Virus record (IMG/VR): IMGVR_UViG_3300013947_000021
Span: 157,228 to 221,227 of that record
From: a virus
Lineage: Duplodnaviria > Caudoviricetes
Length of the DNA: 64,000 bases
Direction: 5' to 3' (one strand)
In this document: positions 234 through 54,019 of the stretch, one piece after another
Layout: each line of letters opens with the position of its first letter
Numbering within the stretch: position 1 is the first letter of the stretch
Program-made: the position numbers and the translations under genes
Notes under the pieces: generated by a model
What the model was told of the DNA's origin: nothing
Database searches by the model: none
Seen by the model: only the letters and a program-made list of their open reading frames with translations

Positions 234-1277
234 ATGTCAGTAATTATTTGTCTTGACCCTGGTCATGTACGTAATTATAATCATGGTGCATATGATCTTT
301 ATTATGAAGGTACCAAAATGTATGATCTTGCAGTAATGCTTAAACAAGAAATTGATAAGTATCCTGGTATGGAAGCTATCATTACCAGAAAGAATGTCGA
401 TGATAATCCTGAACTTCATATCAGAGGAAGAATTGCAAAGAATGCTGGGGCTAGATGCTTTATATCTCTTCATACCAATGCCGCAGTTAATCCCAATATT
501 AATCAGGTTACTATATTTAGATCTATTAAAATGCCTGGTACTGAAGCTCTTGCATGGAAACTTGAAAATGCTATAGCAGATCTTATCGGTAAGGATGTTC
601 CTACCACTAAGTATCCTAGAATTGCTACTAGACTTATTTCATCTGGTCCTAAGGCTGGACAGGATTATTATGGAGTACTTAGAGGAAGTACTGATGGATC
701 TATTAAGGAATCCATGATAATTGAGCATGTTTATCATACTAATTATAAACAGGCTGAATGGATGTATAACAATAATAATCTTAGACAGCTTGCTATAGTA
801 GAAGCTAAGGTTCTTGCAGATTATTATGCTGATCTTAGAGCTCAAGAAATAAATAAGCCTACTAATAATACTAATAATAACAATACAACTACTGTTGGAA
901 AAGCTTATATTGTAAAATCTGGAGATTCATGGTGGTCAATTGCTGCTAATCAGATGGGTTCAGGAGCTAAGATGTATGAACTTGCTGAATATAACAATTG
1001 TACTATAAAGTCTGTACTTGCTGTTGGAAGTACTATAAAGATTCCTACTATTGCAAGCAATAATGATAAGTCCAATAATAATTCTAGCAATACTAATACT
1101 ACTAAACCTGCTACTGGTTATAAATTCTATACTGTTAAAATAGGTGATTCTTGGTGGGGAATTGCTGCTAGAGAAATGGGTAATGGAGCTAAATATAAAG
1201 AACTTGCTGAATATAATGGACTTAAGACTACTAGTATTATAAAGCCTGGTCAGACTATAAAGATTCCTGTAGCATAA
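234..1277 (+). CDS. Endolysin-like N-acetylmuramoyl-L-alanine amidase (Amidase_3) with two C-terminal LysM domains
   Basis: LDPGH, E, SLHTNA and IIEHVY zinc-amidase motifs; two YxVKxGDSWWxIA...N LysM repeats with Asn/Thr linkers; GGAGG RBS before ATG 234. Confidence 0.92.
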   Translation: MSVIICLDPGHVRNYNHGAYDLYYEGTKMYDLAVMLKQEIDKYPGMEAIITRKNVDDNPELHIRGRIAKNAGARCFISLHTNAAVNPNINQVTIFRSIKMPGTEALAWKLENAIADLIGKDVPTTKYPRIATRLISSGPKAGQDYYGVLRGSTDGSIKESMIIEHVYHTNYKQAEWMYNNNNLRQLAIVEAKVLADYYADLRAQEINKPTNNTNNNNTTTVGKAYIVKSGDSWWSIAANQMGSGAKMYELAEYNNCTIKSVLAVGSTIKIPTIASNNDKSNNNSSNTNTTKPATGYKFYTVKIGDSWWGIAAREMGNGAKYKELAEYNGLKTTSIIKPGQTIKIPVA

Positions 1278-1283
1278 AAATAT

Positions 1284-1308
1284 CCCCTAGGAGAAATTCT
1301 CCTAGGGG
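1284..1308. terminator. Bidirectional intrinsic terminator
   Basis: CCCCTAGGAGA/TCTCCTAGGGG inverted repeat between convergent genes. Confidence 0.85.
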
Positions 1309-1315
1309 TTTATAT

Positions 1316-2464
1316 TTAATATCTATTCTCAACTATATCGGGATAATTAACAAATATACCATAATTTTTATTCTTATATACGGCTGTATTGGCAAGTTTC
1401 TCTCTCATAGCTTTAAATTGTTCGAGAACTTTTATCCACTTCTGCCGCATATCTTCATCTTGTTCTTCCATCGCATAATCATCAAGAATAGATATATTGT
1501 TATTAATAACTCTCATGAGATAAAGAGCATCTGCTTCTTCTTCTACATTCTTAATCTGCATAAGAAGTTCACAGTATGTACCTTCAATCATCTTGAGATT
1601 ATTAAGTCTATGTTTTCTCTTCTTTTCTGCAATTCTTTCTTTAATAGTAGATTCAAGAACCATATTATCATCAATATGCTTAATTCTCTTAATCATATTC
1701 TCATACTCAGTCTGCTCAATTCTAGATGCAGTAAATGCTCTTGCTCTAGCAAGTGTATTAATTGCTCCAACTCTTCTTATCTTAAGATTTCTATAAATAG
1801 AGAGAGCCCATGCAAAAATAGCAAACTTACTTACCTGAGCATTTGCATAAATAGAACCGAAATTTCTATATATAGTATCATGAGCCATTCCAAGATCATA
1901 TGCAAGTCCATATGCATTAAGGAATTCATTAGAATAGAATACATCACTATCTTCTATATAGAAGAAAGAATTAACTTTAGAAAGATAATCTCTAAGTCCA
2001 AATCCAAGAATATCTTTATAGTGAATAGAATCAGATATCTTTATATTATCTCTATTTGCATAAAGATATGCATTAAGTGTATCTCTAGTATTCTCCATAG
2101 GAGTAGAATCATTTACAAGTCTAGAAACTTCATAAAGAAGAATAGAAATAATCTTTTCTATATCAAGATTAAGAATAGGATCAAAAAGCTTAGAATCAAA
2201 TTCTATCATATAAGTATTTATTCTATAAGGATCATCATCAGAAATGAGATCATAAATACTCGATACATTGACGATAGGCATTATTTTAATACCAAAAAAC
2301 ATTCTATCAATATTAGTAGTATAAAGTACCTCTTTACATTCAGAATCAGTAAAGAATTTATTAAGTTCATTCTTAATAGTTTTAAGATCAGAGGTATTTA
2401 TATCGAATTTATTTTTCAGCCTACTAATAGCATCAGCTAAATTAGTAAAGTCATATTTAATCAT
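1316..2464 (-). CDS. Hypothetical, probable virion head protein
   Basis: 382 aa ORF, GGAGG RBS, AACT-N6-TAA promoter at 2492-2504, next to the capsid gene. Confidence 0.6.
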   Translation of the reverse strand: MIKYDFTNLADAISRLKNKFDINTSDLKTIKNELNKFFTDSECKEVLYTTNIDRMFFGIKIMPIVNVSSIYDLISDDDPYRINTYMIEFDSKLFDPILNLDIEKIISILLYEVSRLVNDSTPMENTRDTLNAYLYANRDNIKISDSIHYKDILGFGLRDYLSKVNSFFYIEDSDVFYSNEFLNAYGLAYDLGMAHDTIYRNFGSIYANAQVSKFAIFAWALSIYRNLKIRRVGAINTLARARAFTASRIEQTEYENMIKRIKHIDDNMVLESTIKERIAEKKRKHRLNNLKMIEGTYCELLMQIKNVEEEADALYLMRVINNNISILDDYAMEEQDEDMRQKWIKVLEQFKAMREKLANTAVYKNKNYGIFVNYPDIVENRY

Positions 2465-7720: not shown

Positions 7721-8338
7721 TTACTCATCATTATCATCATTAGAAGATATAGATTCAATACAATCATCAATATCTAAATCTCCTTCTATCATTCTTTTAA
7801 GATTACTCTTATTTATATCAAAAAGTGTTGCAGCATGAGCAACTGCACATGAATTAAGCGGAACATAAATTCCATGAGGACCTTTAGCATTTCCTATATA
7901 GCAAGGATGATCAATTCTACCAAGATCATGAATAGTATCATCATCTTTAGTAGTACCAATATAATGGAATCCATCATCTACAGTATTTATAATTCCAGCC
8001 AATGGGATCTTATACTGTCTATCTGCCTTACAACCAACTCTTGCATCATGAACATTTGAAACTACTGGAGCTCCAAGCATAGCTCCAGAAAAAGTTGGAT
8101 CTCCAACAATTTCTACATCATGATCTTTATTAATAGCAAATCCATTTTCACTTATTGTATGCTGAAATCCTAATGCAAAATCAGCAAACTCATCAAGCTT
8201 ATCAATCTTATCTGCTATATCAAGCATATAATTATTAATCTGCTTAGCCATAGCATGTTCCGCTTCAGATTTATCTTCTTTCTTTATAAAGTCTAAATCC
8301 TCTGCAGGAATATGAAGTACATATTTCTTAGTTTCCAT
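7721..8338 (-). CDS. Hypothetical protein
   Basis: 205 aa ORF with AAGGAG RBS. Confidence 0.7.
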   Translation of the reverse strand: METKKYVLHIPAEDLDFIKKEDKSEAEHAMAKQINNYMLDIADKIDKLDEFADFALGFQHTISENGFAINKDHDVEIVGDPTFSGAMLGAPVVSNVHDARVGCKADRQYKIPLAGIINTVDDGFHYIGTTKDDDTIHDLGRIDHPCYIGNAKGPHGIYVPLNSCAVAHAATLFDINKSNLKRMIEGDLDIDDCIESISSNDDNDE

Positions 8339-8367: not shown

Positions 8368-8994
8368 TTATATTTCAGATGTATCATATTTTAAAGCATA
8401 CTTCTCAAAAATCTTAAATTGTTCAAATTCTGTTTCTTCTTTTCCATAAATATTTTCAAATTCTTTATTTAATATAGAAGAGTCAAAATCGGGCATGGTG
8501 AAATTAAATATCATCATCATATTAATGCCATAATTATTAGCATATAATCCTAAAAGCGTTTTATACACTATAAAATTAGTATGGTCAAGATCAATATCAT
8601 TAAATTCTTTCTTAGTTTTTCTACTAAGTAAATAAGAATGAACAAAATGATTTGTTAAATTACATGATGCATAAAGAATCATATCAGAAAGATAATCTAT
8701 AACCTCTAATCCTTCTGGAGTAAAAAGTTGTAAGGAATTATATATTTTCTGATCTAATTCAGGAATCATACTACCATCAGTATTTGAAACCTGATCAAGC
8801 GTAATAATATTAAATCTATCTGTAATATTTTTATAATTAGAAATACTGTGATAGACTTTATTTATTATTTCTGTGCCTAAAACGTTTTCTGGTTGTTTTG
8901 TAGCTTTAATTTTATCTTTTAGGGTCTTTTCATTTGCTACAGCAAGTTTCATAAAACTCATTTTCGATATTGGTAAATAAGTGTCTTTTTTCAT
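8368..8994 (-). CDS. Hypothetical protein, probably early
   Basis: 208 aa, AGGAGAAAT RBS, GATATTAT motif at 9061-9068 plus leader hairpin. Confidence 0.7.
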   Translation of the reverse strand: MKKDTYLPISKMSFMKLAVANEKTLKDKIKATKQPENVLGTEIINKVYHSISNYKNITDRFNIITLDQVSNTDGSMIPELDQKIYNSLQLFTPEGLEVIDYLSDMILYASCNLTNHFVHSYLLSRKTKKEFNDIDLDHTNFIVYKTLLGLYANNYGINMMMIFNFTMPDFDSSILNKEFENIYGKEETEFEQFKIFEKYALKYDTSEI

Positions 8995-9087
8995 AATAAA
9001 TTTCTCCTAAATAAAATATATTTTTTTTTGAATACATTTTAATTATTTGTATTCAAAAATATAATATCTAATTATTTTAATAAATAA

Positions 9088-9266
9088 TAAAAAGAATTAA
9101 GGTGCAGCCATCTCAGCCGCACCTTAATCTATTTCAACAAAAGGAGAAATCATGAAACGAAAACAACAAAAATTTACACGAACACAAAAGCAATGAGCAA
9201 AATAAATGAAAGGAAAACAATGAAAACCAAATCACGAGCAGTAGAGATTGGGACTTAATCCCTACT
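9088..9266 (-). ncRNA. Candidate small RNA 1 (anti-SD / anti-start-codon)
   Basis: AACA-N6-TAG promoter 9265-9277, 5' hairpin, U-rich body, terminator 9098-9129; G-U pairs in both stems work only on the minus strand. Confidence 0.65.
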
Positions 9267-9296
9267 AATAATATGTTAATATTTTTTCATAAATAT

Positions 9297-9443
9297 AAAG
9301 AAAATAATGCAAGATGAATTTCCATCTTGCATTATAATTTTCTGAAAGGACAATAATACATAATAAATTGTAACGAAAATAAAATATATGAGGTTCCAAA
9401 ATCACCAATAGCTATCCCACAAATTAGATGGTGAGTCTAATTT
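9297..9443 (-). ncRNA. Candidate small RNA 2 (anti-SD)
   Basis: AACA-N6-TAA promoter 9442-9454, hairpin starting at predicted +1, UCCUUUCA core, terminator 9304-9335 with U-tract. Confidence 0.6.
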
Positions 9444-9495
9444 ATAATAGTGTTTGTAATATATTTTTAAATACCAGCCAAATTCTATATGTCCA

Positions 9496-9508
9496 AACAT
9501 ATCGATAA
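9496..9508 (+). promoter_or_regulatory. AACA-N6-TAA promoter of the prohead protease
   Basis: AACA TATCGA TAA about 30 nt before the start codon. Confidence 0.7.
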
Positions 9509-9538
9509 ATATATTTAAATACCGGAGGTGTATATAAT

Positions 9539-10354
9539 ATGGCAAATATGCCTATTGGATATATAATTCTTGAAGGTGCACCATCTGAAATTCCAGATGC
9601 CACTATAATAAAAGAATCTAATAAAAGAGTTATAGGAGAAGGAATTATTCAGACTGCAGAAGAAGAAAATAGAAATGGAAGATGTTATCTTCAGCCTGAT
9701 CTTTTAAGAGAAGTTCAGTGTGCAAGAACTAAAGAACTTCTTACTACAGGAAATATGCTTTCTGAGAATGGTCATCCTATGGATACATCTATGATTAGGC
9801 AGCAGACTATTGATCCTAATAATACTGTCGCTAGATTTCTTAAGATCTGGATGGATGGAAATAATGTAATGGCTCAATTTAAGGGAACTAATAATGCTAA
9901 GGGCGAAGAATTTGATCAGGATCTTAGGGAAGGCGTTCTTCCTAGCTGGTCTCTTAGAGCTCTTGGTTCTCTTGCAAATAAGGGTGGACGTAATGTAGTT
10001 GAAAATCTTAAGGTTATTACCTGGGATAGAGTTATTTATCCGTCTCATCCTCATGCTTATACTACTAGACTTGTAAGCGAGTCTGCTGGAATTCGTGATA
10101 ATTCTATTAATACTATGAATAAAAATGGTAAACTCATTCCTATTACAAATGAGTCTGTTGTTTCATATATTAAATCAGAATCTGGGAGAATTAAATCTCT
10201 TATTGAGCAGGTTGATTTTATGTATGAATCTACTGATATCGTAGATAATGGACGTAGAGTAAGACTTGTTGCTAAGAATGGTGATATCTTTATGATAAAT
10301 CTTGAAAATCATGTTGCTAATGAAATTGAAAAATATTGTCTGACTAGAAGATAA
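9539..10354 (+). CDS. Prohead core protease (T4 gp21-like)
   Basis: NRNGRCY, ENGHP, SLRALGS and DRVIYPS motifs. Confidence 0.88.
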   Translation: MANMPIGYIILEGAPSEIPDATIIKESNKRVIGEGIIQTAEEENRNGRCYLQPDLLREVQCARTKELLTTGNMLSENGHPMDTSMIRQQTIDPNNTVARFLKIWMDGNNVMAQFKGTNNAKGEEFDQDLREGVLPSWSLRALGSLANKGGRNVVENLKVITWDRVIYPSHPHAYTTRLVSESAGIRDNSINTMNKNGKLIPITNESVVSYIKSESGRIKSLIEQVDFMYESTDIVDNGRRVRLVAKNGDIFMINLENHVANEIEKYCLTRR

Positions 10355-10457
10355 ATAATACATGAATTAGGTAGAAGGGTTGTTCCCTTCTACCTAGCTT
10401 TTATTACGTCAACTTATAAATAAATATTAGATATATTGAAAGGAGGAAAATAATATT

Positions 10458-21850: not shown

Positions 21851-21981
21851 AATATTATGAGATGAGCCATGCTCATCTCATTTTCTTTTTTGAGCATATA
21901 ATATAATTATGAAGTACAAAGGTACTTTATTATAGCCCTGAAAACTATTTAATAAACTTTTATATTGAAAGGAATACAATT

Positions 21982-26775: not shown

Positions 26776-26807
26776 TTATTAAAATTTAATGAAAGGATAA
26801 TAAAGCA

Positions 26808-27251
26808 ATGAGCAATACTAAAAAATATGTAATAAATACTAAAAATATTTTTGGATTAGAAAAATTTTTGCATATTAGTAAAGATAAATTAGAAGTTCCA
26901 GATGATTATTATAGTGATAAAGATGCATGGGATATGATAAATGAAGCGGCACATTTTAGTAACGATCTTTGTACACTTAAATTATTATATCCTCATGCAA
27001 ATTATAAAGATATTCTTATTGCATCATTTCAGGCTAATCCCAAATTACTAGCTTATATTTTGAGCATGTTTAAAATTTGTAAATCTGAAGGAAATCCAAT
27101 TGATGCAGATACAATAAATAATTGGATGGCTGAAGCTACAGTAGTAGATGGATCAGCTAATAAAGAATTACTTGCTAATTCATCAATTATCGATAATAAG
27201 TTTCCTAGCAAATCTAATAAGTCATATATACAGAAGGAGATAACAAAATGA
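26808..27251 (+). CDS. Hypothetical protein (candidate sRNA target)
   Basis: 147 aa ORF, GAAAGGA RBS. Confidence 0.65.
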   Translation: MSNTKKYVINTKNIFGLEKFLHISKDKLEVPDDYYSDKDAWDMINEAAHFSNDLCTLKLLYPHANYKDILIASFQANPKLLAYILSMFKICKSEGNPIDADTINNWMAEATVVDGSANKELLANSSIIDNKFPSKSNKSYIQKEITK

Positions 27252-30596: not shown

Positions 30597-32525
30597 ATGC
30601 TTATGCAATGGCATATAGTCACATCTGCTGTATATAAGGCTGGTACGCCGGTAGATGGTGACATGTATTTCATTAGCGATACCCATGAAATTTATCGTGG
30701 TGCAGTACCATTCACAGAATCTGTTGTAATGTATACTGATCTCCCGGTAGATGGTATTGCAAAGAATAGACTGTATATTAATTCCACCACGCTTGAAGGT
30801 AAGATCCATGATGGCACTGAGTGGAAGACTGTAATCAGACCTATTGACGCAACTGTTACTGCTGATGGCATTAATGCTGTTTCTGGTAAGGCAGTTGCTG
30901 CATATGTTGCTGCAGAGATTGCTAAGGTTACTGCTAGCGGAGACGTTGTTAGTAAGCTTGCATGGGATTCTGCTGAGCATATGCTTACGGTTACTAAGGG
31001 ATCTAATGAGAGTGAGAATATCACTTTCACTGGTCTTGGTGTAAACCTTGACTATGAAGCTGCTACTGGTAACCTTCAGCTTACTGATGCTGCAGGTAAC
31101 AAGATTGGTGATCCGATTAAGCTCGATCTTGAGCGTTTCGTAAAGTCTGCTGAGTATATTGCAGCAGATAAAACTATCGTTCTTTACTTCGATGATGAGA
31201 AGAAGGATTCTATCTCGATTCCTGTTGGAGATCTTGTTGATACCTATACTGCTGAAGCTGCAGATAAGTCTCTTGAGCTTTCCGTTGCTGAAGGTAATGT
31301 AATTAAGGGTAAGGTTAAGATTTCCACTAAGAATGGTAATATTCTTACTCTTAATGATGATGGTCTTTATGTAGCAGCTCCTGATATCACTGGTAAGATG
31401 GATAAGGTTACCGATGGTGTAACTGGAAACATCCTTACTCTTGGTGCAGATGGTCAGGCAGTTGACTCTGGTAAGACCTTTAGCGATCTTGCATCAAATA
31501 ATAAGATTTATAAGGGTGCAACTCTTGAAGAGGCTGTAACTGGCAATACTCCTATTAAGGGTGACGTTGCTATTATTAGCAATAAGATTGGTAGTTCAGA
31601 CAAGGTTGAGCGCAAGGCATATATCCATGATGGTGAAACCTGGCTCCCGATGACCGAGTACTATAATGCCGCTAATGTCATTTTCCCTGAGAATCTTAAG
31701 ACTACTTATGCAATGGGTAATATTACCCTTACTAATGGTCAGGCTGAAATTAATAGTACGGGTAAGAGCTATCTCGATACCTGGAACATGATCTGGGTTA
31801 AGGAGAAGCAGCCTACTGTTACTCAGCCGTCTGTTTCTGTAACTCTTAACCAGGCTAAGGCATATGAGGTTGGTACTTCGGTAACTCCGTCTTATTCTGC
31901 TTCGCTCAATCCTGGTAAGTATGAGTTTAACCCGAATAATGGTGCTACTGGTATTACTGCTTCCAGTTGGGAGATTAGTGATACTGCTGGTCATACTGCT
32001 ACTACTAATACTGGCACGTTTGATGCTATTACTGTAGCAGATGGCATGAATTATAGCATTACTGCTAAGGCTAACTATGAGGATTCTCCGAATGCTCCGC
32101 TTACCAACCTTAGTAATGCAGCAGATGCTTCGAAGAAGATTCTTGCTGGTTCTAAGTCTGCAACTTCTGGTAAGATCACTGGTTTCAGAAATAGTTTCTA
32201 TGGAACTATTACTGAAGCTAATGATACTCCTGCTAGTGCAGATATTCGTAAACTTACAGCTTCTGGCAAGGCACTTGCAAAGGGTGCTAAGATTAACTTG
32301 ACTATTTCTAATACTGCAAAGAGAATTATTATTGCAATTCCTGCAACTCTTGGTGGTGTAGTGGTCACATATGATGAAGGTATGGGAGCAGATGTTACGG
32401 CATCGTTTGCAGCTACTCAGGTAGATGTTGAAGGTGCTAATGGCTATACTGCAGCTGCATATAAGGTATATGTTGCTCCTGCTGCATATTCGGGCACAGT
32501 TCATTATACTGTGGTAATTCAGTAA
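30597..32525 (+). CDS. Fibre/appendage-like structural protein A
   Basis: 642 aa, A/T/G/V-rich, high-expression codons; N-terminal ~300 aa paralogous to 34241-35518. Confidence 0.6.
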   Translation: MLMQWHIVTSAVYKAGTPVDGDMYFISDTHEIYRGAVPFTESVVMYTDLPVDGIAKNRLYINSTTLEGKIHDGTEWKTVIRPIDATVTADGINAVSGKAVAAYVAAEIAKVTASGDVVSKLAWDSAEHMLTVTKGSNESENITFTGLGVNLDYEAATGNLQLTDAAGNKIGDPIKLDLERFVKSAEYIAADKTIVLYFDDEKKDSISIPVGDLVDTYTAEAADKSLELSVAEGNVIKGKVKISTKNGNILTLNDDGLYVAAPDITGKMDKVTDGVTGNILTLGADGQAVDSGKTFSDLASNNKIYKGATLEEAVTGNTPIKGDVAIISNKIGSSDKVERKAYIHDGETWLPMTEYYNAANVIFPENLKTTYAMGNITLTNGQAEINSTGKSYLDTWNMIWVKEKQPTVTQPSVSVTLNQAKAYEVGTSVTPSYSASLNPGKYEFNPNNGATGITASSWEISDTAGHTATTNTGTFDAITVADGMNYSITAKANYEDSPNAPLTNLSNAADASKKILAGSKSATSGKITGFRNSFYGTITEANDTPASADIRKLTASGKALAKGAKINLTISNTAKRIIIAIPATLGGVVVTYDEGMGADVTASFAATQVDVEGANGYTAAAYKVYVAPAAYSGTVHYTVVIQ

Positions 32526-32540
32526 TAGGAGGGAATAAAA

Positions 32541-34115
32541 ATGGCTAGTTATGTACCCGTAACAAATATACTCGAATTCCCTATGGCCTTTGTGCCTACT
32601 GGAGCATTCCCGATTGATGGTAGATCAATGTTTGGTTCCTATGCTGAAGCAGTTACTGCTGCAGGTACTGTAGGAACTGAAGGGTCCAAATATTATATCG
32701 GTATGGCTCTTACTGTATATGAGAATGATACTGTTAAGATGTATCAGATCGCTGCAGATAAGACGCTTCAGGAAGTTGGTTCGGTAACTCTTACTGATGG
32801 TAAGACTATTGAATATGGTGATGATGGTAAGACCATCTCCCTTAAGAATTTTGGTAAGGAGTATTATGCATATAAGCCTGCTGATAAGATTATTGCATCT
32901 TCTGATGAGTATTCTTATCCGGATAGCATGCCTGCTGCTCCTGCTGCAAATAGTTATGTAAAGATTGCAGAAGCTTGGTATAAATACGATGGCTCTGCTT
33001 GGGCCGTTGCTGATGCTGAGCCTGCAACTGCTGCTACCTATGTTAAGACTACTGGTTGGAAGGCTGGTGTTCAGCCTAAGGCAGTTCTTAATGCTGAAGG
33101 TAATGGCTTTGAGATTGCATGGTATGAGCCGTCTACTACTACGGTTGAGGGTGTCTCTGAAACTGTAAGCTCGCTCCAGACGACTGTTGATTCTCTTGTT
33201 CAGAATGTCAATGAGACTATTCCTGGTCAGATTGAAACTGCAGTTGGTGAAGAAGAAACTAGAGCTAAGGGTGTTGAGTCTGGTCTTAGAACCGATGTAG
33301 ATACTAATACTGCTGCTATTACTAAACTTAATGGTGATGCTGAAACTGATGGTTCTGTGAAGAATCAGATTGCTGCAGCAATTGCTGGTATTATGAATAA
33401 CCCGGATGAAACTATGAACTCTATTCAGGAGCTCGTAGACTGGGTAAATAGTCATAATACTGAAGCTACCACTATGTCTAATAATATCAAGAAGAATACT
33501 GATGACATTAATACTATTAATACTCTTCTTGGTACTGCTCTTCCTGAGGGCACTACTGCTACTACTGTAATTGGTTATATTGCGGAGGCTGTTAAGGCTG
33601 AGGCAGACCGTGCTAAGGATGAAGAGGGTAAGAATGCTACTGCTATTGCAAATCTCAAGACTGCAGTTGAAGCAATTGATGTTACAGCTTTTGCTACTAA
33701 GGAACAGGGTCTCAAGGCAGATAGTGCTGTGCAGACTGTTGTTAAGGGTGAAACCAATGGTCATATTGCTGTAGATGGTGTTGATGTTGAGGTTTATACT
33801 GCTCCTATAGCATCTACTACTGCGCTTGGTCAGGTTCAGCTTGATGGTACTTCTATTACTGTAACTGATAAGGGTGTAGCATCTGTTGCTGCAGTTGATG
33901 CTACCAAGATTACTGGTCTTGATGGTAAGCTTACTGATACTCGGACTGCTGCTACTGAAGCTGCTAATACTTATACTGATGAAAATGCAGTTGCTAAGAC
34001 TGCTATCGTTGAGGATAGCACTAAGGCAGCAACATCGGTTGAAGCTGCATCTTCTGCAAAGGTTGTTTCTGAAAAGCTTCTTATGCAGTATCTTGAGTGG
34101 AAGACTGAGATGTAA
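32541..34115 (+). CDS. Fibre/appendage-like structural protein B with coiled-coil stalk
   Basis: 524 aa; C-terminus paralogous to 34241-35518. Confidence 0.6.
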   Translation: MASYVPVTNILEFPMAFVPTGAFPIDGRSMFGSYAEAVTAAGTVGTEGSKYYIGMALTVYENDTVKMYQIAADKTLQEVGSVTLTDGKTIEYGDDGKTISLKNFGKEYYAYKPADKIIASSDEYSYPDSMPAAPAANSYVKIAEAWYKYDGSAWAVADAEPATAATYVKTTGWKAGVQPKAVLNAEGNGFEIAWYEPSTTTVEGVSETVSSLQTTVDSLVQNVNETIPGQIETAVGEEETRAKGVESGLRTDVDTNTAAITKLNGDAETDGSVKNQIAAAIAGIMNNPDETMNSIQELVDWVNSHNTEATTMSNNIKKNTDDINTINTLLGTALPEGTTATTVIGYIAEAVKAEADRAKDEEGKNATAIANLKTAVEAIDVTAFATKEQGLKADSAVQTVVKGETNGHIAVDGVDVEVYTAPIASTTALGQVQLDGTSITVTDKGVASVAAVDATKITGLDGKLTDTRTAATEAANTYTDENAVAKTAIVEDSTKAATSVEAASSAKVVSEKLLMQYLEWKTEM

Positions 34116-34240
34116 AATAAAATTAGTCAAGGGTAAGGAAAATCTTACCCTTGATTTTCTTTTTCAGAACATAATTATAAATCTATGAGAAAAATATAAA
34201 TCATAGAAAAATTTTTAATTATCCAGGAGGAATTTAAGAT

Positions 34241-35518
34241 ATGCTTACTTGGCATTATATAACTAGAAAAGCTTTTGATGATGCAGCAGAAGCAACTAAG
34301 ACTGCTGACAAGCTTTATTTTATTTCTGATACGCATGAAATCTATAAGGGCACTCAGCTCTTCAATGAGTCTGTTACTCTCGTAGAAGAGTTCCCGGCTG
34401 CTGGTGGTGCAGTTGGAAGACTTTATGTCGATTCTACTACGCTTGAGGGTAAGATTTGGACTGGTGCTGCTTGGACCACTGTTATTCAGCCTGTTCAGGC
34501 TACGCTTACCGCTTCTGATACTGCTAAGCCGGTTTCTGGTAAGGCAGTTGCAGACTACGTTTCTGGTGAGATTGCAAAGGTAACTGGCTCGAAGGATCTT
34601 GTTACTGGTGTTGCATATGATGCAAATGGTAATAAGCTCACTGTTACGATGGCTGATACTACCACGACAGATGTTCCGCTTACTGGCACTGCAGTAGATC
34701 TTACTTATGATTCGACTACTGGCGAACTTAAGGTTAAGAATGCTTCTGGTACTGCTCTTGGTACTGGTGTTAAGCTTGACCTCGAGCGTTTCGTAAAGTC
34801 TGCTACTTATGATGATGAAAACAAGAAGATCATCCTCAACTTCAATGATGATAGCATTCCTCTTGAGATTGAGGTTGGTGATCTTGTTGATACTTACACT
34901 GCAAAGAACTCGACGACTGTTTCTCTTACTGTAACTGGTAATGAGTTTACTGCTGAGGCAATTGTTGCTGCTACTGCTGGTAATATGCTTAAGAAGACTG
35001 ATGCTGGTCTTTATGTTGCAGCTACTGATGTTTCTGGTAAGATCGATAAAGTTGCTGATGCTACGGCTGATGCAGTCGCTATCCTTATGGCTGATGGACA
35101 GATTGCTGATTCTGGTGTGAAGATTGGTGCTGCTGCTCTTGCAGAAACTGCTACTGCTTCGACTCTCGCTACCGAAGCTGCTGTTGCTGCAGTTCGTACT
35201 GCTCTTCAGACTGCTATCGATGGTAAGATGGCTAAGGTTGCAGCTTCCAAGGCAGATGAGGTCCTTGTTGCTACTGCTGATGGTAACGCTGCAGTTTCTG
35301 GCGTTAAGATCGGTGGAGAGGCTATGAAGGATACGAAGGATGCTTCTACTCTCGCTACTGAAAAGGCAGTTGAGACTTATGTAACTGGTTATGCAGTTGC
35401 TAAGACTGCTATCGTTACTGATGGTAATGTTGCTACGACTGTTGCTGCTGCTTCGGATGCAAAGGTTGCTTCTGAGAAGGCATTTGTTGATGCAATGACC
35501 TGGAAGACTACTGCATAA
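34241..35518 (+). CDS. Fibre/appendage-like structural protein C
   Basis: 425 aa Ala/Thr-rich; own promoter 34168-34180 and terminator near 35535-35566. Confidence 0.6.
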   Translation: MLTWHYITRKAFDDAAEATKTADKLYFISDTHEIYKGTQLFNESVTLVEEFPAAGGAVGRLYVDSTTLEGKIWTGAAWTTVIQPVQATLTASDTAKPVSGKAVADYVSGEIAKVTGSKDLVTGVAYDANGNKLTVTMADTTTTDVPLTGTAVDLTYDSTTGELKVKNASGTALGTGVKLDLERFVKSATYDDENKKIILNFNDDSIPLEIEVGDLVDTYTAKNSTTVSLTVTGNEFTAEAIVAATAGNMLKKTDAGLYVAATDVSGKIDKVADATADAVAILMADGQIADSGVKIGAAALAETATASTLATEAAVAAVRTALQTAIDGKMAKVAASKADEVLVATADGNAAVSGVKIGGEAMKDTKDASTLATEKAVETYVTGYAVAKTAIVTDGNVATTVAAASDAKVASEKAFVDAMTWKTTA

Positions 35519-35623
35519 GTTAAATACTTATAATTATAGAGGAAGGGCAAAAACCCTTCCTCTATTTATTTTATTTAAATTCACATCATAATAAATACTT
35601 TTATTAAAGGAGGATAATATAAA

Positions 35624-36100
35624 ATGGTTGTCCATTATGATATAACAGAAAGTTATTTAACTAATAAAAAGTTTGAAGCTGGAGCTATTTATTATTGTAA
35701 TGATACTGGAAATGTATTTCTTGATAGTGTGACTGAAAAAACTCGTATTCAGGTTTCAAGAGATATAATTCCGATTGCAACTGAAGCAGATAAGCCTATT
35801 GCGCCGCTTCCTAATAAGCTTTATTGTGTAATGGCTACTGGAACTCTTTGTATATTCTTTAATGGTGCTTGGGTAAATCTTGGTCGTCCTCAGATTCATT
35901 TTGCAAATGTTATGGTTCCTGCTAGTAGTGCACTTGAAATTTCAGATAATAGAATTATTTCTGCTGATAAGGCAGTATTTATTCCTGATCTTTCTGTAGC
36001 AGATCTTTGTACAAAATCTACTGCAACTTGTTCTGATGGAAAAGTTACTATATCTGTAACTGCAAGCTTTCCTATTATTGGAGAAGTAATTATAAACTAA
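35624..36100 (+). CDS. Small fibre-related protein
   Basis: 158 aa; GAIYYCNDTGNVF resembles the GDMYFISDTHEIY N-terminal motif of proteins A and C. Confidence 0.5.
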   Translation: MVVHYDITESYLTNKKFEAGAIYYCNDTGNVFLDSVTEKTRIQVSRDIIPIATEADKPIAPLPNKLYCVMATGTLCIFFNGAWVNLGRPQIHFANVMVPASSALEISDNRIISADKAVFIPDLSVADLCTKSTATCSDGKVTISVTASFPIIGEVIIN

Positions 36101-36116
36101 TTCCGAGGTGATATAA

Positions 36117-36845
36117 ATGGAATATGGTGTTCCCTCATTCTTAAAGAGAGATGGAGATGCTCTTTTATTTAATGAAGAAGGACAGTTTGTTTTCTATGTT
36201 CCTGAGACATATTTTGATCGAGGGGATGCTGAAATAAAAGGTGAATATGTAAATTTACTTGGAATTCTTGATTATAGCATCTTCAAGCCAGATGGAACTA
36301 ATATTGGTTTAAAGAGATTTAACTTCCCAACTGTATTTCTTGCTAAGCCTTCTAGAATTGAAAAGTTAAAAGGTGTACAGCTTAGAGATGTTGTTGATAA
36401 GCAAGATTATAGACTACTTGTTTTTGAAAAGGGAGATGCTGTTGTAGTATCTGTTAAAGTTCCTCAGAATATAGCAAATGTTGAGGACTTTTATAAGATA
36501 TTCCTTACTGGTAAACTTCCTACTACTATTCCATATGATAAACTTCAAAATTATTTTGTTGATTCTATAGAACTTAATGGTTCTTCTTATGGAATGAGTC
36601 TTCAGATGTTTGGAATTATTGTTGGTGAAATGTGTAGAGATCCTAAAGATCCTGCTAAAGCTTTCCGTCATACTAATTTTAAAGATATGATGGAATATAA
36701 AGCAATATCTATTAAAGATCTTCCTAAATATATTTCACCTAATTCTTCTATATCTTCTGAGAACTGGGATTTTGGTGTTATAGGTGCTATTATGAATCCT
36801 TCAAACGTCAATTCTCCGCTTGAAAGATTGATCATGGGTTCCTAA
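36117..36845 (+). CDS. Probable virion RNA polymerase beta-prime extreme C-terminal fragment
   Basis: NG..MSLQMFGIIVGEMCR and SISSENWD..IGAIMN..SPLERLIMG parallel the beta-prime C-terminal HIEVIVRQM and SFQET..ENVIVG motifs. Confidence 0.65.
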   Translation: MEYGVPSFLKRDGDALLFNEEGQFVFYVPETYFDRGDAEIKGEYVNLLGILDYSIFKPDGTNIGLKRFNFPTVFLAKPSRIEKLKGVQLRDVVDKQDYRLLVFEKGDAVVVSVKVPQNIANVEDFYKIFLTGKLPTTIPYDKLQNYFVDSIELNGSSYGMSLQMFGIIVGEMCRDPKDPAKAFRHTNFKDMMEYKAISIKDLPKYISPNSSISSENWDFGVIGAIMNPSNVNSPLERLIMGS

Positions 36846-36952
36846 CCAAATGCCCATTATTAACATAAAATTAAAGCTACGCTATTTTATATATAGCCTT
36901 AGTATATATCTTATAATTGTAGTAAATAATATTCTTAAAGGAGGAAATATAA

Positions 36953-38800
36953 ATGTATCCTGGCGTAATAGTTGAATACGAGGATCGGAGCGAACGTTCT
37001 GATCTTGCTATAACTACCGTACGGAATAGACCTCTCTTTTTGGCACTCTTTACCTCTGAGAAGGGTACTGAAGAGTGGACTAGAATTTCAGGTAGAGATT
37101 TCTTTACTATGTACGGAAATACAATTTCATTCAGCAGGCATGGTCAGCCTCTTCTTCAGGCAGCTATGTCTATTAATGCTGGTGCAGAGCTTCTTTGTAA
37201 GCGTCTTGTAGCTAGTGATTCTGCTCTTGCAAATATTGGTATTGTTGCTACTCTTGGTACTAAGCAGGTTCAGCGTACTGATGCTGATGGTAATCTTCTT
37301 TATACCAATAGCGATGGTAATGAGGTTACTGATGTAACTGATAATCCTGTTATGGATACCGTTAATACCATTTCTTATAGTCTTAAGACTGCTCCTGGTG
37401 TTAAGACTGTTGATGCTGCATATGAAGCAATTAAGGCTAAGATGACCGATGATAATAGTTATCTTCTTTATGTAATTGCTGATAATGGTAGAGGTACTTC
37501 TAAGAAGAGAATTAGAATTACTCCTAATTATACAATCTCTAGAACTCGTGAGTATACTACTTATAGTATCTCTGTTAGAGAAGGTGACTCTGAGATTGAG
37601 TCTATTTCTTTTGCTATTAATCCGAATCTTGTTGTAAATAATCAAAATATTTCTCTTCAGTCTATGGTAAATAGCAATTCTACCCAGATTGTTTGTAAGG
37701 CTGATGATGATAGTATCGAGAAGTTTGCTAAGAAGATGGCTGAGCTTAATGGTATTGAAGATGATAGCCTTATCTATAGCTACGATATTCTCTTTGGATG
37801 CTCGAATAAGGGTGTAACTCTTGATGGCTTTGAACTTGATTCTGAAGGTATTGATCTTAGATATAACTATGGTCAGATTCTTCAGAGTGGTAACAATGGT
37901 AAGTTTGGTGATAAGCCCTTTGAGCAGACTGAAGAGTGGTCTACTCAGGCAGTTGAGGCACTTAATGGTACTTTTGATGAAGTCATCTTCAACCTTGATC
38001 AGTTTATGATTAGTGCATGTGTTGATGCAAACTATCCTACTGCTGTTAAGAGAGCTATTGAACAGCTTGTTATGTTTAGAGAAGACTTCTTCTACTTCAG
38101 AGATCAGGGTCTTGGAAAGACTTCCATTGAGCTCATGACTAGTGAAGTTCAGAAAGAGGCTAAGAGCATGTTCTGTGCTACTTATCCTCAGTCTTATGAT
38201 GTAATTGATCCTTATACCAAGAGACAGATTACTGTGACCATGGGTTATTCTCTTGCACAACTTCTTGTTAATCATCTTGATAGAGGTGCAATTCTTCCGC
38301 CTGCAGGTATTCTCCATGATATGATCATTACTGATTGTATTTATGGTACTCTTTCATTTACTCCTGTTATTTGTCCTGATCCTAAGGGTAACCAGAAGGA
38401 GCAGATGGAAGAGATCGGTGTAAACTATGCATCATATATTGATAATGCTCTTGTTATTGAGTCTCTTTATACTTCTCAGGAGAAGAAGTCTCAGTGGAGC
38501 TATATTAATAATGTCATGGGAATTCAGGAAGTTGTACGTGCTATTCGTAGAAGATGCCCTGCTATTCGTTATAGCTTTATGGATGGAGAGGATCTTGAGA
38601 AATATCGTAAGGAAGTTGAGGAAGTAATTGCTCCTTATGCATCTAACTTTAAGACGCTTGAGCTTACTTATGTTGCTGATACTACTTACGCAGCTAATAA
38701 GATCTTCTACGCAGTCCTTAAGTGTGTCTATAAGGATTTTGTCCAGACTGAATGGTTCAAGGTCATTGCGCTTCCTACGCAGACTACTGTAGTAGAGTAA
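36953..38800 (+). CDS. Probable tail sheath protein
   Basis: MYPGVIVE start, LPPAG motif, sheath-like C-terminus, high-expression codons, promoter 36862-36874. Confidence 0.8.
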   Translation: MYPGVIVEYEDRSERSDLAITTVRNRPLFLALFTSEKGTEEWTRISGRDFFTMYGNTISFSRHGQPLLQAAMSINAGAELLCKRLVASDSALANIGIVATLGTKQVQRTDADGNLLYTNSDGNEVTDVTDNPVMDTVNTISYSLKTAPGVKTVDAAYEAIKAKMTDDNSYLLYVIADNGRGTSKKRIRITPNYTISRTREYTTYSISVREGDSEIESISFAINPNLVVNNQNISLQSMVNSNSTQIVCKADDDSIEKFAKKMAELNGIEDDSLIYSYDILFGCSNKGVTLDGFELDSEGIDLRYNYGQILQSGNNGKFGDKPFEQTEEWSTQAVEALNGTFDEVIFNLDQFMISACVDANYPTAVKRAIEQLVMFREDFFYFRDQGLGKTSIELMTSEVQKEAKSMFCATYPQSYDVIDPYTKRQITVTMGYSLAQLLVNHLDRGAILPPAGILHDMIITDCIYGTLSFTPVICPDPKGNQKEQMEEIGVNYASYIDNALVIESLYTSQEKKSQWSYINNVMGIQEVVRAIRRRCPAIRYSFMDGEDLEKYRKEVEEVIAPYASNFKTLELTYVADTTYAANKIFYAVLKCVYKDFVQTEWFKVIALPTQTTVVE

Positions 38801-38814
38801 GGGAGGAATAAATA

Positions 38815-39660
38815 ATGGCTAGTAATTTCAATATGTTTACTGATCTTAAGACCCCGAGAGATCTTAGTAAATATACACTTTATAGGGGTACTACTGATTT
38901 CTCGCAGCTTCAGCAGTTTGATCTTTATGAACAGGGTTATCCGCTTCTTGTGGTTGTTTCTGTTCCGAGATTCCTTGAGAAAATGGCTGAGAAGGATGCA
39001 ACTGTAAAGAATCTTATTGATTCGTATATCCATGTTCTTGAGTACGAGTTCAAGGGTATTTCTGGTGGTATTGATGATATGGGCTCTGATACTGGTGAGG
39101 TTACCAATGGAGTTCAGTCTATTAATGCTATTCTTAAGACCAATGGTCCGAATGGCACTACCATTAGTATGGAGTATCAGGAAAAGGCTGGTTCTACTAT
39201 TACTAAGATGCATGAGCTTTATCTTAGAAATGTAAGAGATCCTGCTAGTGGACTTAAGACTTATGGTGGTCTTATTGGACTTGGCGATACTGCAGATATT
39301 AGAGCAGAGGATGCTGGTTTTGATAAGGAAACCTTTAGCTTCCTTTACATGCATACTGATAATACTGGACTTCTTCTTGAGCGTGCTGTTTACTTCGTTG
39401 GATGCTCCCCGACAAGCGCTCAGCTTAGTATTTATCAGGGTACCAAGGGCGATGTTTCATTCCAGAATGTAACTTGTGAATTTAATGCATTCCCAATTCA
39501 TGGTGCTGAAGTTAATAAGCGTGCTAAGGCTGTTCTTGACTGGCTTAATAACGAGGCTAATGATAAGATGATTCATCGTATTTCTTGGGATTACAATTAT
39601 GCTGCTCTTAGTGATACTGCTGAGGGTCTTGCACAGACCAAGCTTACTGGTGGTAACTAA
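38815..39660 (+). CDS. Probable tail tube protein
   Basis: 281 aa directly after the sheath, high-expression codons, tube-like C-terminal pattern. Confidence 0.7.
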   Translation: MASNFNMFTDLKTPRDLSKYTLYRGTTDFSQLQQFDLYEQGYPLLVVVSVPRFLEKMAEKDATVKNLIDSYIHVLEYEFKGISGGIDDMGSDTGEVTNGVQSINAILKTNGPNGTTISMEYQEKAGSTITKMHELYLRNVRDPASGLKTYGGLIGLGDTADIRAEDAGFDKETFSFLYMHTDNTGLLLERAVYFVGCSPTSAQLSIYQGTKGDVSFQNVTCEFNAFPIHGAEVNKRAKAVLDWLNNEANDKMIHRISWDYNYAALSDTAEGLAQTKLTGGN

Positions 39661-39675
39661 TATAAAAAATAAAGC

Positions 39676-39701
39676 CGTAGAGGGGGAAACCCTCTACGGT
39701 A
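39676..39701. terminator. Bidirectional terminator
   Basis: CCGTAGAGGG/CCCTCTACGG stem between convergent genes. Confidence 0.85.
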
Positions 39702-45117: not shown

Positions 45118-45229
45118 ATAAAATAATATATCTAGGCCATTTGAAGGCCTAGATATATTACATAATTAAGAAAGGGGTTTCATATGTCATCAAAACAATA
45201 TAGATAGGGACAGACAACTTATCTATATT
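45118..45229 (-). ncRNA. Candidate small RNA 3 (anti-SD / anti-start-codon)
   Basis: AACATATTATTAA promoter 45228-45240, hairpin at +1, unpaired UGACAU..CCCCUUUCUU, terminator 45124-45160. Confidence 0.6.
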
Positions 45230-45304
45230 AATAATATGTTACTGTGCTAGTATTTAACTACTTTAACACTTTTATAAATAAAATTAAGGAGGTTAATATA
45301 TAAA

Positions 45305-46219: not shown

Positions 46220-46439
46220 AAAAAAAAGAAGAAGACAGTAGCCCATGGCGGCTACTGTCTTTTTATATTCAAAATCAGATGTATCATCTTTTTATGAGGC
46301 ATACATGTACATTTATTAAGGCAATCGAAGAAATCTATCTATGACAAAATTCTGTTCAAAACTTTTATATATCTTTTGAAAGGATGGTGTTTACGATTTA
46401 CGGATTTGTCCAACGAACAAGAATTTATACATCTGATTT
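46218..46439 (-). ncRNA. Candidate small RNA 4 (closed long stem, anti-SD loop)
   Basis: AACT-N6-TAA promoter 46438-46450, 13-bp stem 46427-46439/46272-46284, terminator 46232-46262. Confidence 0.55.
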
Positions 46440-46466
46440 AATTTGTAGTTAGTATATTAGTAAAAT

Positions 46467-53413: not shown

Positions 53414-54019
53414 TCAAAGGCCCTTATCGTTCTTAATAATCTGCTTAATATACTCACCAGGAGTAATTGTATATATCTTTGTATCTCCATCTACAGATAC
53501 TCCTGCAGTAAATACAGATCTGAGAGTTACCTGAAGCTCTTCATCAGGAGATGCATTCTTATCGAGGAACTTCTTAAGAACATCGATAAGAGTACCAAGC
53601 ATCTGATCAGTATGCTCAAGTGTTACGAATCTACCATAAAGAATAGATTCAGCTTCATGGTCACAGCATGTAATAAAGAGATCAGAATGATTATCAATCT
53701 CCTTATCAGCATCCTTAAGATCATCTTCATTAAATGTAAACGAGAGGAACCAGTTACCCTTATCCTCCTCATCTTCATCCGGCTCAATGAATTCAAGAGC
53801 TGCTCCAAAGATAAATTCACCCTTAGTATTCTTATACTTAAATGCAATCTTCTTATAGCTCTTATCTTCAGACAGCTTCAGTACATCTGCTATTGTACTG
53901 AAAAATATACGATACATATCTGCGGTTCTAGATTCGACCCACATGAAATTAAAGTTGTCATGGAGCTCGATGCTATAGTTTGCTGCAATGCTCGTGTTTT
54001 CAAAGTTAAATTCTTTCAT
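53414..54019 (-). CDS. Abundant acidic probable early protein
   Basis: High-expression codons, GATATTAT at 54097-54104, leader hairpin, own terminator near 53370-53400. Confidence 0.7.
   Translation of the reverse strand: MKEFNFENTSIAANYSIELHDNFNFMWVESRTADMYRIFFSTIADVLKLSEDKSYKKIAFKYKNTKGEFIFGAALEFIEPDEDEEDKGNWFLSFTFNEDDLKDADKEIDNHSDLFITCCDHEAESILYGRFVTLEHTDQMLGTLIDVLKKFLDKNASPDEELQVTLRSVFTAGVSVDGDTKIYTITPGEYIKQIIKNDKGL

Follow-up and report, generated by a model that had tools for sequence, protein, structure and literature searches.

The described architecture closest to that of the RNA considered here, sRNA 1, is that of the streptococcal csRNAs, CiaR-dependent RNAs made up of a stem-loop, an unpaired stretch complementary to both the Shine-Dalgarno (SD) sequence and the start codon, and a terminator stem-loop (PMC3091779). 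The trinucleotide CAU is found in 53 of 61 csRNAs, several sibling copies occur per genome, and they have been proposed to block translation initiation (PMC3091779). Like them sRNA 1 has an unpaired anti-SD and anti-AUG stretch between two stem-loops, and by analogy of architecture it is built as they are without being homologous to them: it has no sequence or covariance-model similarity (Rfam), it is encoded by a phage, it has an AR9-type late promoter as opposed to a CiaR promoter, and its body is longer and duplicated. In Firmicutes the trans-acting sRNAs RsaE/RoxS, LhrC and the RNAIII of S. aureus use C/U-rich seeds to occlude the SD and end in an intrinsic terminator; these seeds usually lie in hairpin loops (UCCC/CCCC) and the RNAs are host-encoded. 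The resemblance of sRNA 1 to this group is looser, as it shares a pyrimidine-rich, unpaired, SD-complementary seed and a terminator but is phage-encoded and has no match to these families in Rfam at E <= 10.

Among phages, the c4 antisense RNA of P1 and P7 covers the ribosome-binding region with short complementary segments and so blocks translation, its defined target (ant/icd) lying in its own transcript as part of a temperate-phage immunity circuit (PMC12197685). sRNA 1 is likewise a phage RNA with short segments complementary to ribosome-binding regions, however no defined target has been found for it and it has no Rfam C4 match. Bacillus phage AR9 makes late and antisense transcripts (PMC5312081), and the giant phages phiKZ and 201phi2-1 make sRNAs of unexplored function, some of which are conserved in position (PMC11512511, PMC8244752); those of the phiKZ group are mostly 5'UTR-derived, with 8 of the 11 in 201phi2-1 being products of premature termination (PMC11512511). 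The promoter grammar of sRNA 1 is that of AR9 late promoters (PMC5312081), but the papers on these phages describe neither anti-SD/anti-AUG boxes nor an RNA family of this kind (PMC5312081, PMC11512511, PMC8244752). Jumbo phages go unmentioned in a 2025 review of phage sRNAs (PMC12197685), and our search of the literature found no description of such anti-initiation RNA units in AR9-like phages.

Little is known of regulatory RNAs in virulent phages, and if a conserved late RNA that mirrors start sites were truly present, a giant phage could reprogramme its own early translation, or that of its host, without a protein factor. What is described below has the look of a real, conserved RNA gene; the view of it as three copied gene starts aimed at three specific targets, put forward in a sequence-only reading of the same DNA, fails both a chance test and the comparison with relatives.

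A predicted late transcription unit upstream of the prohead protease gene

The stretch of DNA analysed (the window, 64,000 nt) forms the final 64 kb of an IMG/VR virus record that is 221,227 bp long and has a GC content of about 30%. A multisubunit RNA polymerase (RNAP), a prohead protease and a terminase are encoded in this record, which is therefore that of an RNAP-encoding jumbo phage; a DNA polymerase is also encoded in the window, and the 221-kb source virus is an uncultured AR9-like jumbo phage. Within the window there is a GC-richer block (30600-39700, 38-41% against about 29%) in which very long ORFs on the two strands overlap one another, for example 32541-34115 (plus) and 32625-34130 (minus). 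The features of the locus and the genes referred to below are as follows.

8995-9538: divergent intergenic region of 544 nt between gene 8368-8994 (minus) and the protease gene, holding sRNA 1
9539-10354, plus strand: T4-type prohead protease (PF03420), by domain match
start 10458, plus strand: gene for a terminase-like protein
start 21982, plus strand: multisubunit RNAP subunit (RNAP beta'-like; phrog_3015)
9277-9266, minus strand: late promoter of sRNA 1, AACATATTATTA (AACA-N6-TA), predicted +1 the A at 9266
9266 to about 9088, minus strand: predicted transcript of sRNA 1, 181 nt (about 180), from late promoter to terminator
9240-9266, minus strand: 5' hairpin from +1, 10 bp with one G.U, by folding
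9185-9237, minus strand: body unit 1, with an anti-AUG CAU, the conserved anti-SD box and the complement of module 1
complement of 9220-9222, minus strand: anti-AUG CAU of unit 1
complement of GAAAGGA 9208-9214, minus strand: conserved anti-SD box UUCCUUUC (module 2)
9138-9181, minus strand: body unit 2, a diverged tandem copy of unit 1, with AUUUCUCCUUUUG and CAU
complement of 9152-9154, minus strand: CAU of unit 2
complement of 9138-9150, minus strand: AUUUCUCCUUUUG (module 3, box B)
9086-9129, minus strand: intrinsic terminator, a 16-pair stem (9129-9095) with two wobble pairs, then CUUUUUAUUAUU
9054-9070, minus strand: AR9-like early promoter (GATATTAT-N6-G) serving gene 8368-8994 (minus), outside the RNA and bounding it

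In AR9 the late consensus, A(-11)ACA-(6N)-T-A/G(+1), has been mapped experimentally and is read by the non-virion RNAP (PMC7598289; PMC5312081). A motif test found that AACATATTATTA at 9277-9266 agrees with this consensus. The motif is also recovered from the phage itself: a k-mer scan upstream of genes returned AAC[AT]TAT, more generally AAC[AT]-N6-T[AG], which is located 26-50 nt 5' of many gene starts. Intergenic DNA is enriched 2.4-fold in the form AAC[AT]N6TA; of the 88 copies there, 48 lie no more than 70 nt upstream of a gene start on the same strand, and the form precedes the protease (motif at 9496) and the terminase (motif at 10411). An unrestricted EM promoter search drifted to generic AT-rich sequence, yet still recovered the T at +10 after AAC.

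The early consensus of AR9 is AAATATATATTAT-(6N)-G (PMC5312081). Its equal, TATATTAT-N6-G, precedes other genes in G000, the genome of this phage (for example 24285, plus), where a hairpin beginning at +1 often comes next, and at 9070-9054 it is followed by a hairpin, an SD and gene 8994. As the early motif recurs before genes alongside the late motif, both AR9 promoter classes seem, from their sequence, to be conserved in this uncultured group of gut phages. A sanity check of the promoter and terminator grammar is given by a tRNA-Met of a related genome, G004, which is enclosed by its own late promoter and terminator (L075:12731-12860, equal to G004 212731-212860, plus) and has its mature 5' end 2 nt after the predicted +1.

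With the late promoter on one side and the terminator and early promoter on the other, the unit is bounded on both sides. A terminator scan of the region returned 3 sites where 0.1 would be expected, and the U-run of the sRNA 1 terminator is present on the minus strand only. The strand is further indicated by the two stems, which, as the sequence-only reading had pointed out, need G.U pairs that form on the minus strand alone; the same positions are A.C mismatches on the plus strand, where the stems are interrupted, and the minimum free energy is -43.2 kcal/mol (z -4.25) on the minus strand against -26.5 on the plus. Between the stems the body, about 110 nt, is U-rich and mostly unpaired in both the MFE and the centroid folds. 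No minus-strand ORF of at least 40 aa lies within 9086-9266, so that the locus has its own promoter, an intrinsic terminator on the same strand and no maintained ORF, as a stand-alone sRNA gene should. On these sequence features an RNA gene at 9266-9088 (minus) is very probably real, and a minus-strand small RNA is the supported, best model of the region.

The sequence of the RNA belongs to no catalogued family. No Rfam family reached its gathering score in the whole window or in the loci of six relatives, and at E <= 10 the region 8950-9560 gave noise only, with no csRNA-type, RsaE/RoxS, LhrC or C4 match; the best hits are to unrelated families far below the gathering score (for example Srn266, 27.7 bits against 63). 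A DNA search of the phage collection likewise found no record similar in sequence to the sRNA 1 region.

The gene downstream, 8368-8994 (minus), encodes a 208-aa product for which Pfam, PHROG and PADLOC gave no match and which has no homologue in G002, G004 or the loci of the relatives in which the RNA is kept. Having an early promoter to itself, the gene resembles an insertion specific to this lineage. In relatives the sRNA is followed by a gene to which 7721-8338, the next one along in the window, is weakly homologous. A type III toxin-antitoxin system (ToxI-like repeats with a ToxN/AbiQ-like toxin) was considered and rejected: the 208-aa protein is without a match in the three collections, there are two diverged units of 45-53 nt and a single unit in relatives, and the 208-aa gene has its own early promoter and is absent where relatives keep the RNA.

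Conservation of the cassette and of its anti-SD box

Relatives of the protease number about 1,287 at E <= 1e-40, and the upstream regions of about 20 lineages were compared, together with two whole genomes (G004 and G002). Copies with 100% protease identity have an identical region and are uninformative; the identical sequence recurs in ERZ27300217, ERZ26858442 and SRR29834399/461. At 75-80% protease identity the cassette is present in L001/G004, L026, L041-44, L045/46, L083 and G002 with its order and strand kept; other lineages have a short intergenic region upstream of the protease and the cassette is absent there. Seven diverged lineages have it next to the prohead protease, with one gene inserted between the two in G002, and its order of late promoter, body, terminator and then early promoter is conserved. 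The late promoter is kept at the equivalent place, and the early motif, as ATATTATA, comes after the sRNA terminator in L001, L041, L053 and L083. The terminator stems of the relatives are unrelated in sequence but equivalent in position, each being followed by a U-run, and between L041 and L043 a C-to-U change in the terminator leaves the pairing to survive only as G.U on the sRNA strand. The bodies of the relatives, 42-85 nt, are hard to align, and MAFFT on whole cassettes was not useful as the lengths are too variable.

Within these diverged bodies UCCUUU is kept in 7 of 7 lineages, though as the seven are of common ancestry its retention does not amount to seven independent events, and the longer UUCCUUUC is kept in most. 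In 6 of the 7 a CAU lies 4-14 nt 5' of UCCUUU. Read on the opposite strand, CAU-N4-14-UCCUUU is GAAAGGA-N-ATG, a ribosome-binding site and start codon.

An internal tandem duplication of the body brings the window RNA to about twice the length of its homologues. The two halves (9237-9185 and 9181-9138) align with a score of 39 against 26.5 +/- 3.9 for shuffled sequence, a score reached by 3 of 500 shuffles. In unit 2 the old box has decayed to UUUUCGUUUCA, and AUUUCUCCUUUUG has arisen as a new one; the complement of the latter, AAAAGGAGAAAT, is an exact 12-mer before 8 genes of the phage, and no SD context is commoner in the genome. Module 1 (9187-9200) sits in unit 1 where unit 2 has box B, and the unit 2 segment is missing from the diverged relatives, which have a single unit. 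Of the three modules, the second is thus the conserved box, the third a lineage-specific extra box that would stem from the internal duplication, and the first is unconserved. The sequence-only reading had named a lack of conservation of the matches in relatives as a refutation: the box of module 2 is found in seven lineages, and modules 1 and 3 are absent from the diverged relatives.

The plus strand of the same DNA contains two very short reading frames.

9152-9196, plus strand: mini-ORF of 14 aa, MKRKQQKFTRTQKQ, by translation, with a perfect SD and spacing
9193-9258, plus strand: mini-ORF of 21 aa, MSKINERKTMKTKSRAVEIGT, by translation, overlapping the 14-aa ORF as ATGA

There is also a good plus-strand SD before 9220. 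The mini-ORFs are not maintained, as L001 has ATA in place of ATG and a frame shift relative to the conserved nucleotides, and L041 has three codons only; the plus-strand peptides of L026, L045 and L083 are unrelated and 11-15 aa long. They are read here as a probable mirror image of the boxes complementary to translation initiation regions (anti-TIR boxes), and not as genes.

Complementarity to initiation regions and the search for targets

The sequence-only reading had assigned each of three modules to particular gene starts, and the matches it listed are present. Module 1 is identical to 26802-26815 at the start of gene 26808; module 2, as 9207-9221, matches 21966-21980 before the RNAP beta'-like gene at 14 of 15 positions; and module 3 (9138-9150) differs at one position from the SD region before 24369 and from that before 16975, with AAAGGAGAAAT preceding 58681 and AAGGAGAAAT preceding the start near 54019. 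What does not hold is their significance. Judged one pattern at a time they look striking, but the proper null is that of any k-mer of a 190-nt tile compared with 128 kb of 30% GC sequence, and 207 of 336 tiles (62%) had an exact match of at least 14 nt elsewhere. The sRNA 1 tile has 9 matches of at least 12 nt, the mean being 8.1. Its distinct 14/15 matches number 7, where 30 random tiles average 6.6 and 97% of them have at least one. The 14-nt and 14/15 matches thus occur at chance frequency and none of the three is remarkable for its length.

The proposed targets fare no better when relatives are compared, for none of them co-varies with the sRNA. Gene 26808 has a match of chance length to a segment that is absent from all diverged relatives, and it has no orthologue in G004. 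Pairing with its leader at two sites, by AATGAAAGGA and the 14-mer, was also rejected, since these stand there in the order opposite to that in the RNA and one continuous antiparallel duplex is thus impossible. The leader of the G004 orthologue of the RNAP beta'-like gene differs (AAAAGGAGAATGAAAATG), a difference for which the RNA of G004 does not compensate, and module 3 fits the commonest SD of the phage and no particular genes. No specific target among those proposed is supported. Of the suggestion that this is a multi-target RNA built from copied gene starts, the part that stands is the complementarity of the body to ribosome-binding sites and start codons; the three specific targets are not supported. 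Its origin is better put as the complement of a generic SD and AUG, one of the two copies having apparently arisen by internal tandem duplication.

The complementarity of the window RNA to start sites as a class exceeds chance. Its body is complementary over at least 9 contiguous nt to 44 of 203 initiation regions, against 6 of 203 mid-gene regions and 14.6 +/- 5.5 for dinucleotide-shuffled bodies; over at least 10 contiguous nt the count is 26 of 203, against 1 mid-gene and 5.5 +/- 3.6 shuffled. Such contiguous-complement counts were used in place of RNAduplex energies, which when calculated against all leaders mainly reflected long A-U duplexes with big loops and were uninformative. The G004 and G002 homologues do not surpass their own shuffled sequences in matching initiation regions.

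At the level of the family, a set was made of every intergenic late promoter with an intrinsic terminator within 45-300 nt and no gene between, and antisense SD-N3-10-ATG motifs were counted in these late-promoter-to-terminator cassettes. There are 6 in the G000 cassettes against 1.41 +/- 1.09, a number reached by 0 of 500 shuffles, and 3 in those of G004 against 0.45 +/- 0.63, reached by 0.2% of shuffles. This was not replicated in the G002 cassettes, with 2 anti-TIR motifs against 0.7 +/- 0.82 (17% of shuffles) and 5 anti-SD motifs against 4.3.

Candidate messages were sought in other ways. Energies of cognate against non-cognate pairs of sRNA and leader show no convincing difference for the protease (-15.3 against -14.3, n = 7) or the terminase (-20.3 against -17.8, n = 4), and the genes with GAAAGGA[AT] leaders in three genomes have no orthologous pair in common. 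By promoter class, the window RNA matches 11 of 30 early-promoter leaders against 5 of 56 late-promoter leaders (Fisher p = 0.003, post hoc); this preference rests on the lineage-specific box B, was not reproduced by the G002 homologue and is reversed in G004. It would fit a late shut-off of early messages, offered here as a hypothesis only. SD type also differs by class in G000, with late-promoter genes having GGAGG in 32 of 56 and GAGGT in 21 of 56, and early-promoter genes having GGAGA in 12 of 30 and GGAGG in 5 of 30. A wider scheme, in which AR9-like gut jumbo phages would use sets of late-promoter sRNAs mimicking the anti-SD (plus anti-AUG) as a translational switch, sRNA 1 masking early GGAGA leaders whilst late GGAGG(U) leaders escape, is doubtful.

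The reading that we favour, with a probability of about 0.5, is that sRNA 1 would be a late, trans-acting, anti-translation-initiation sRNA of about 180 nt with its own stand-alone phage gene. The non-virion RNAP of the phage would start at the AACA-N6-TA late promoter and make a transcript with a 5' hairpin at +1, a U-rich body of about 110 nt that is largely unpaired and a strong intrinsic terminator. The body would display CAU-N-UCCUUUC modules, the complement of an SD and then AUG, of which the first module is conserved and the second, from the tandem duplication, would fit the commonest SD of the phage, AAAAGGAGAAAU. These modules would pair in trans with the initiation regions of mRNAs and block binding of the 30S subunit late in infection. 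The grammar of the sequence, the strand asymmetry, the conserved cassette and box and the excess complementarity to initiation regions are observed, whereas expression of the RNA, its late timing, its action by pairing and the choice of messages are inferred; pairing with initiation regions is its most likely mode of action.

Alternative readings and related cassettes

It is possible, if rather unlikely, that the RNA is late but that its boxes (UCCUUUC and CUCCUUUU) serve otherwise, as a site for S1, Hfq or another U-rich binder or for a neighbouring structured RNA, or that it is a functionless remnant, the transcribed leftover of a decayed gene start on the opposite strand in a hypervariable region. 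Gene gain and loss are indeed concentrated beside the protease, the search for a conserved target in the phage gave none, and a large structured RNA immediately upstream in relatives contains GAAAGGA-like sequences. Such readings would have to account for a box and a CAU that keep TIR-like spacing in 6 of 7 lineages whose flanks have diverged, and for the enrichment of antisense SD and ATG in cassettes of this kind in two genomes.

A cis-acting leader or attenuator is decidedly unlikely. Here the late promoter at 9277 would serve gene 8994 as well, the 180-nt RNA would be its prematurely terminated leader, and the gene would be expressed both late and early in the manner of the 'continuously expressed' class of AR9, a phage that does have genes with both early and late promoters (PMC7598289). 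The order of late promoter, terminator, early promoter and gene, conserved in relatives, would suit this reading, as would the precedent of the 5'UTR-derived termination products that make up 8 of the 11 sRNAs in 201phi2-1 (PMC11512511). However the terminator has a long stem of 16 pairs and a good U-run, the downstream gene varies by lineage (8994 being lineage-specific) whereas the box in the RNA is conserved, and a leader leaves the conserved anti-SD and CAU box and its duplication unexplained.

Least probable is that the micro-peptides of 14 and 21 aa, coupled by ATGA, are the products and the minus-strand features incidental, for although the plus-strand boxes read as two textbook ribosome-binding sites with start codons, and L045, L026 and L083 also have short ORFs after an SD-like box, no plus-strand promoter of either phage class lies upstream, the U-run hairpin is on that strand 5' of the ORFs with no T-run after it, the stems there carry the A.C mismatches, and neither the ORF nor the sequence and length of the peptide is kept in relatives.

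Units resembling sRNA 1, as a late promoter and a terminator without a gene between, were found at three further places in the window; relatives carry, in addition, a large late-promoter RNA.

9297-9454, minus strand: second cassette, directly upstream of sRNA 1, promoter AACACTATTATA, +1 at 9443
45118-45240, minus strand (RNA 45229-45118): late-promoter/terminator cassette without a gene, with 5' hairpin, ACCCCUUUCUU and a 16-bp terminator (z = -5.5)
about 46232-46450, minus strand (RNA about 46345-46232): weaker cassette, late promoter and terminator, no gene
L083 about 1003-1394, minus strand, and G002 185202-185438; also in L041, L045, L053, L056 and L082: large late-promoter RNA of relatives

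In the cassette directly upstream of sRNA 1 (9443-9297, minus) the 5' hairpin is AAUUAGA/UCUAAUU and the U-rich body closes with UUGUCCUUUCAG; the terminator, at 9335-9304, is so symmetrical that it scores on both strands. The cassette at 45229-45118 (minus) carries CCCCUUUCUU; its stems are perfect palindromes and its strand thus rests upon the promoter and the U-run only. The large RNA of the relatives, for which Rfam gave no match, has the conserved boxes GACAUUCAGGGC and AGAGUGAUGAACUUU, a GUAUGUAAGGACCCUUUAUACAGGGCC hairpin and several hairpins; it is 240-400 nt long, lies between the sRNA 1 homologue and the protease, and is missing in the phage of the window. The cassettes at 45118-45240 and about 46232-46450 flank the DNA-polymerase region.
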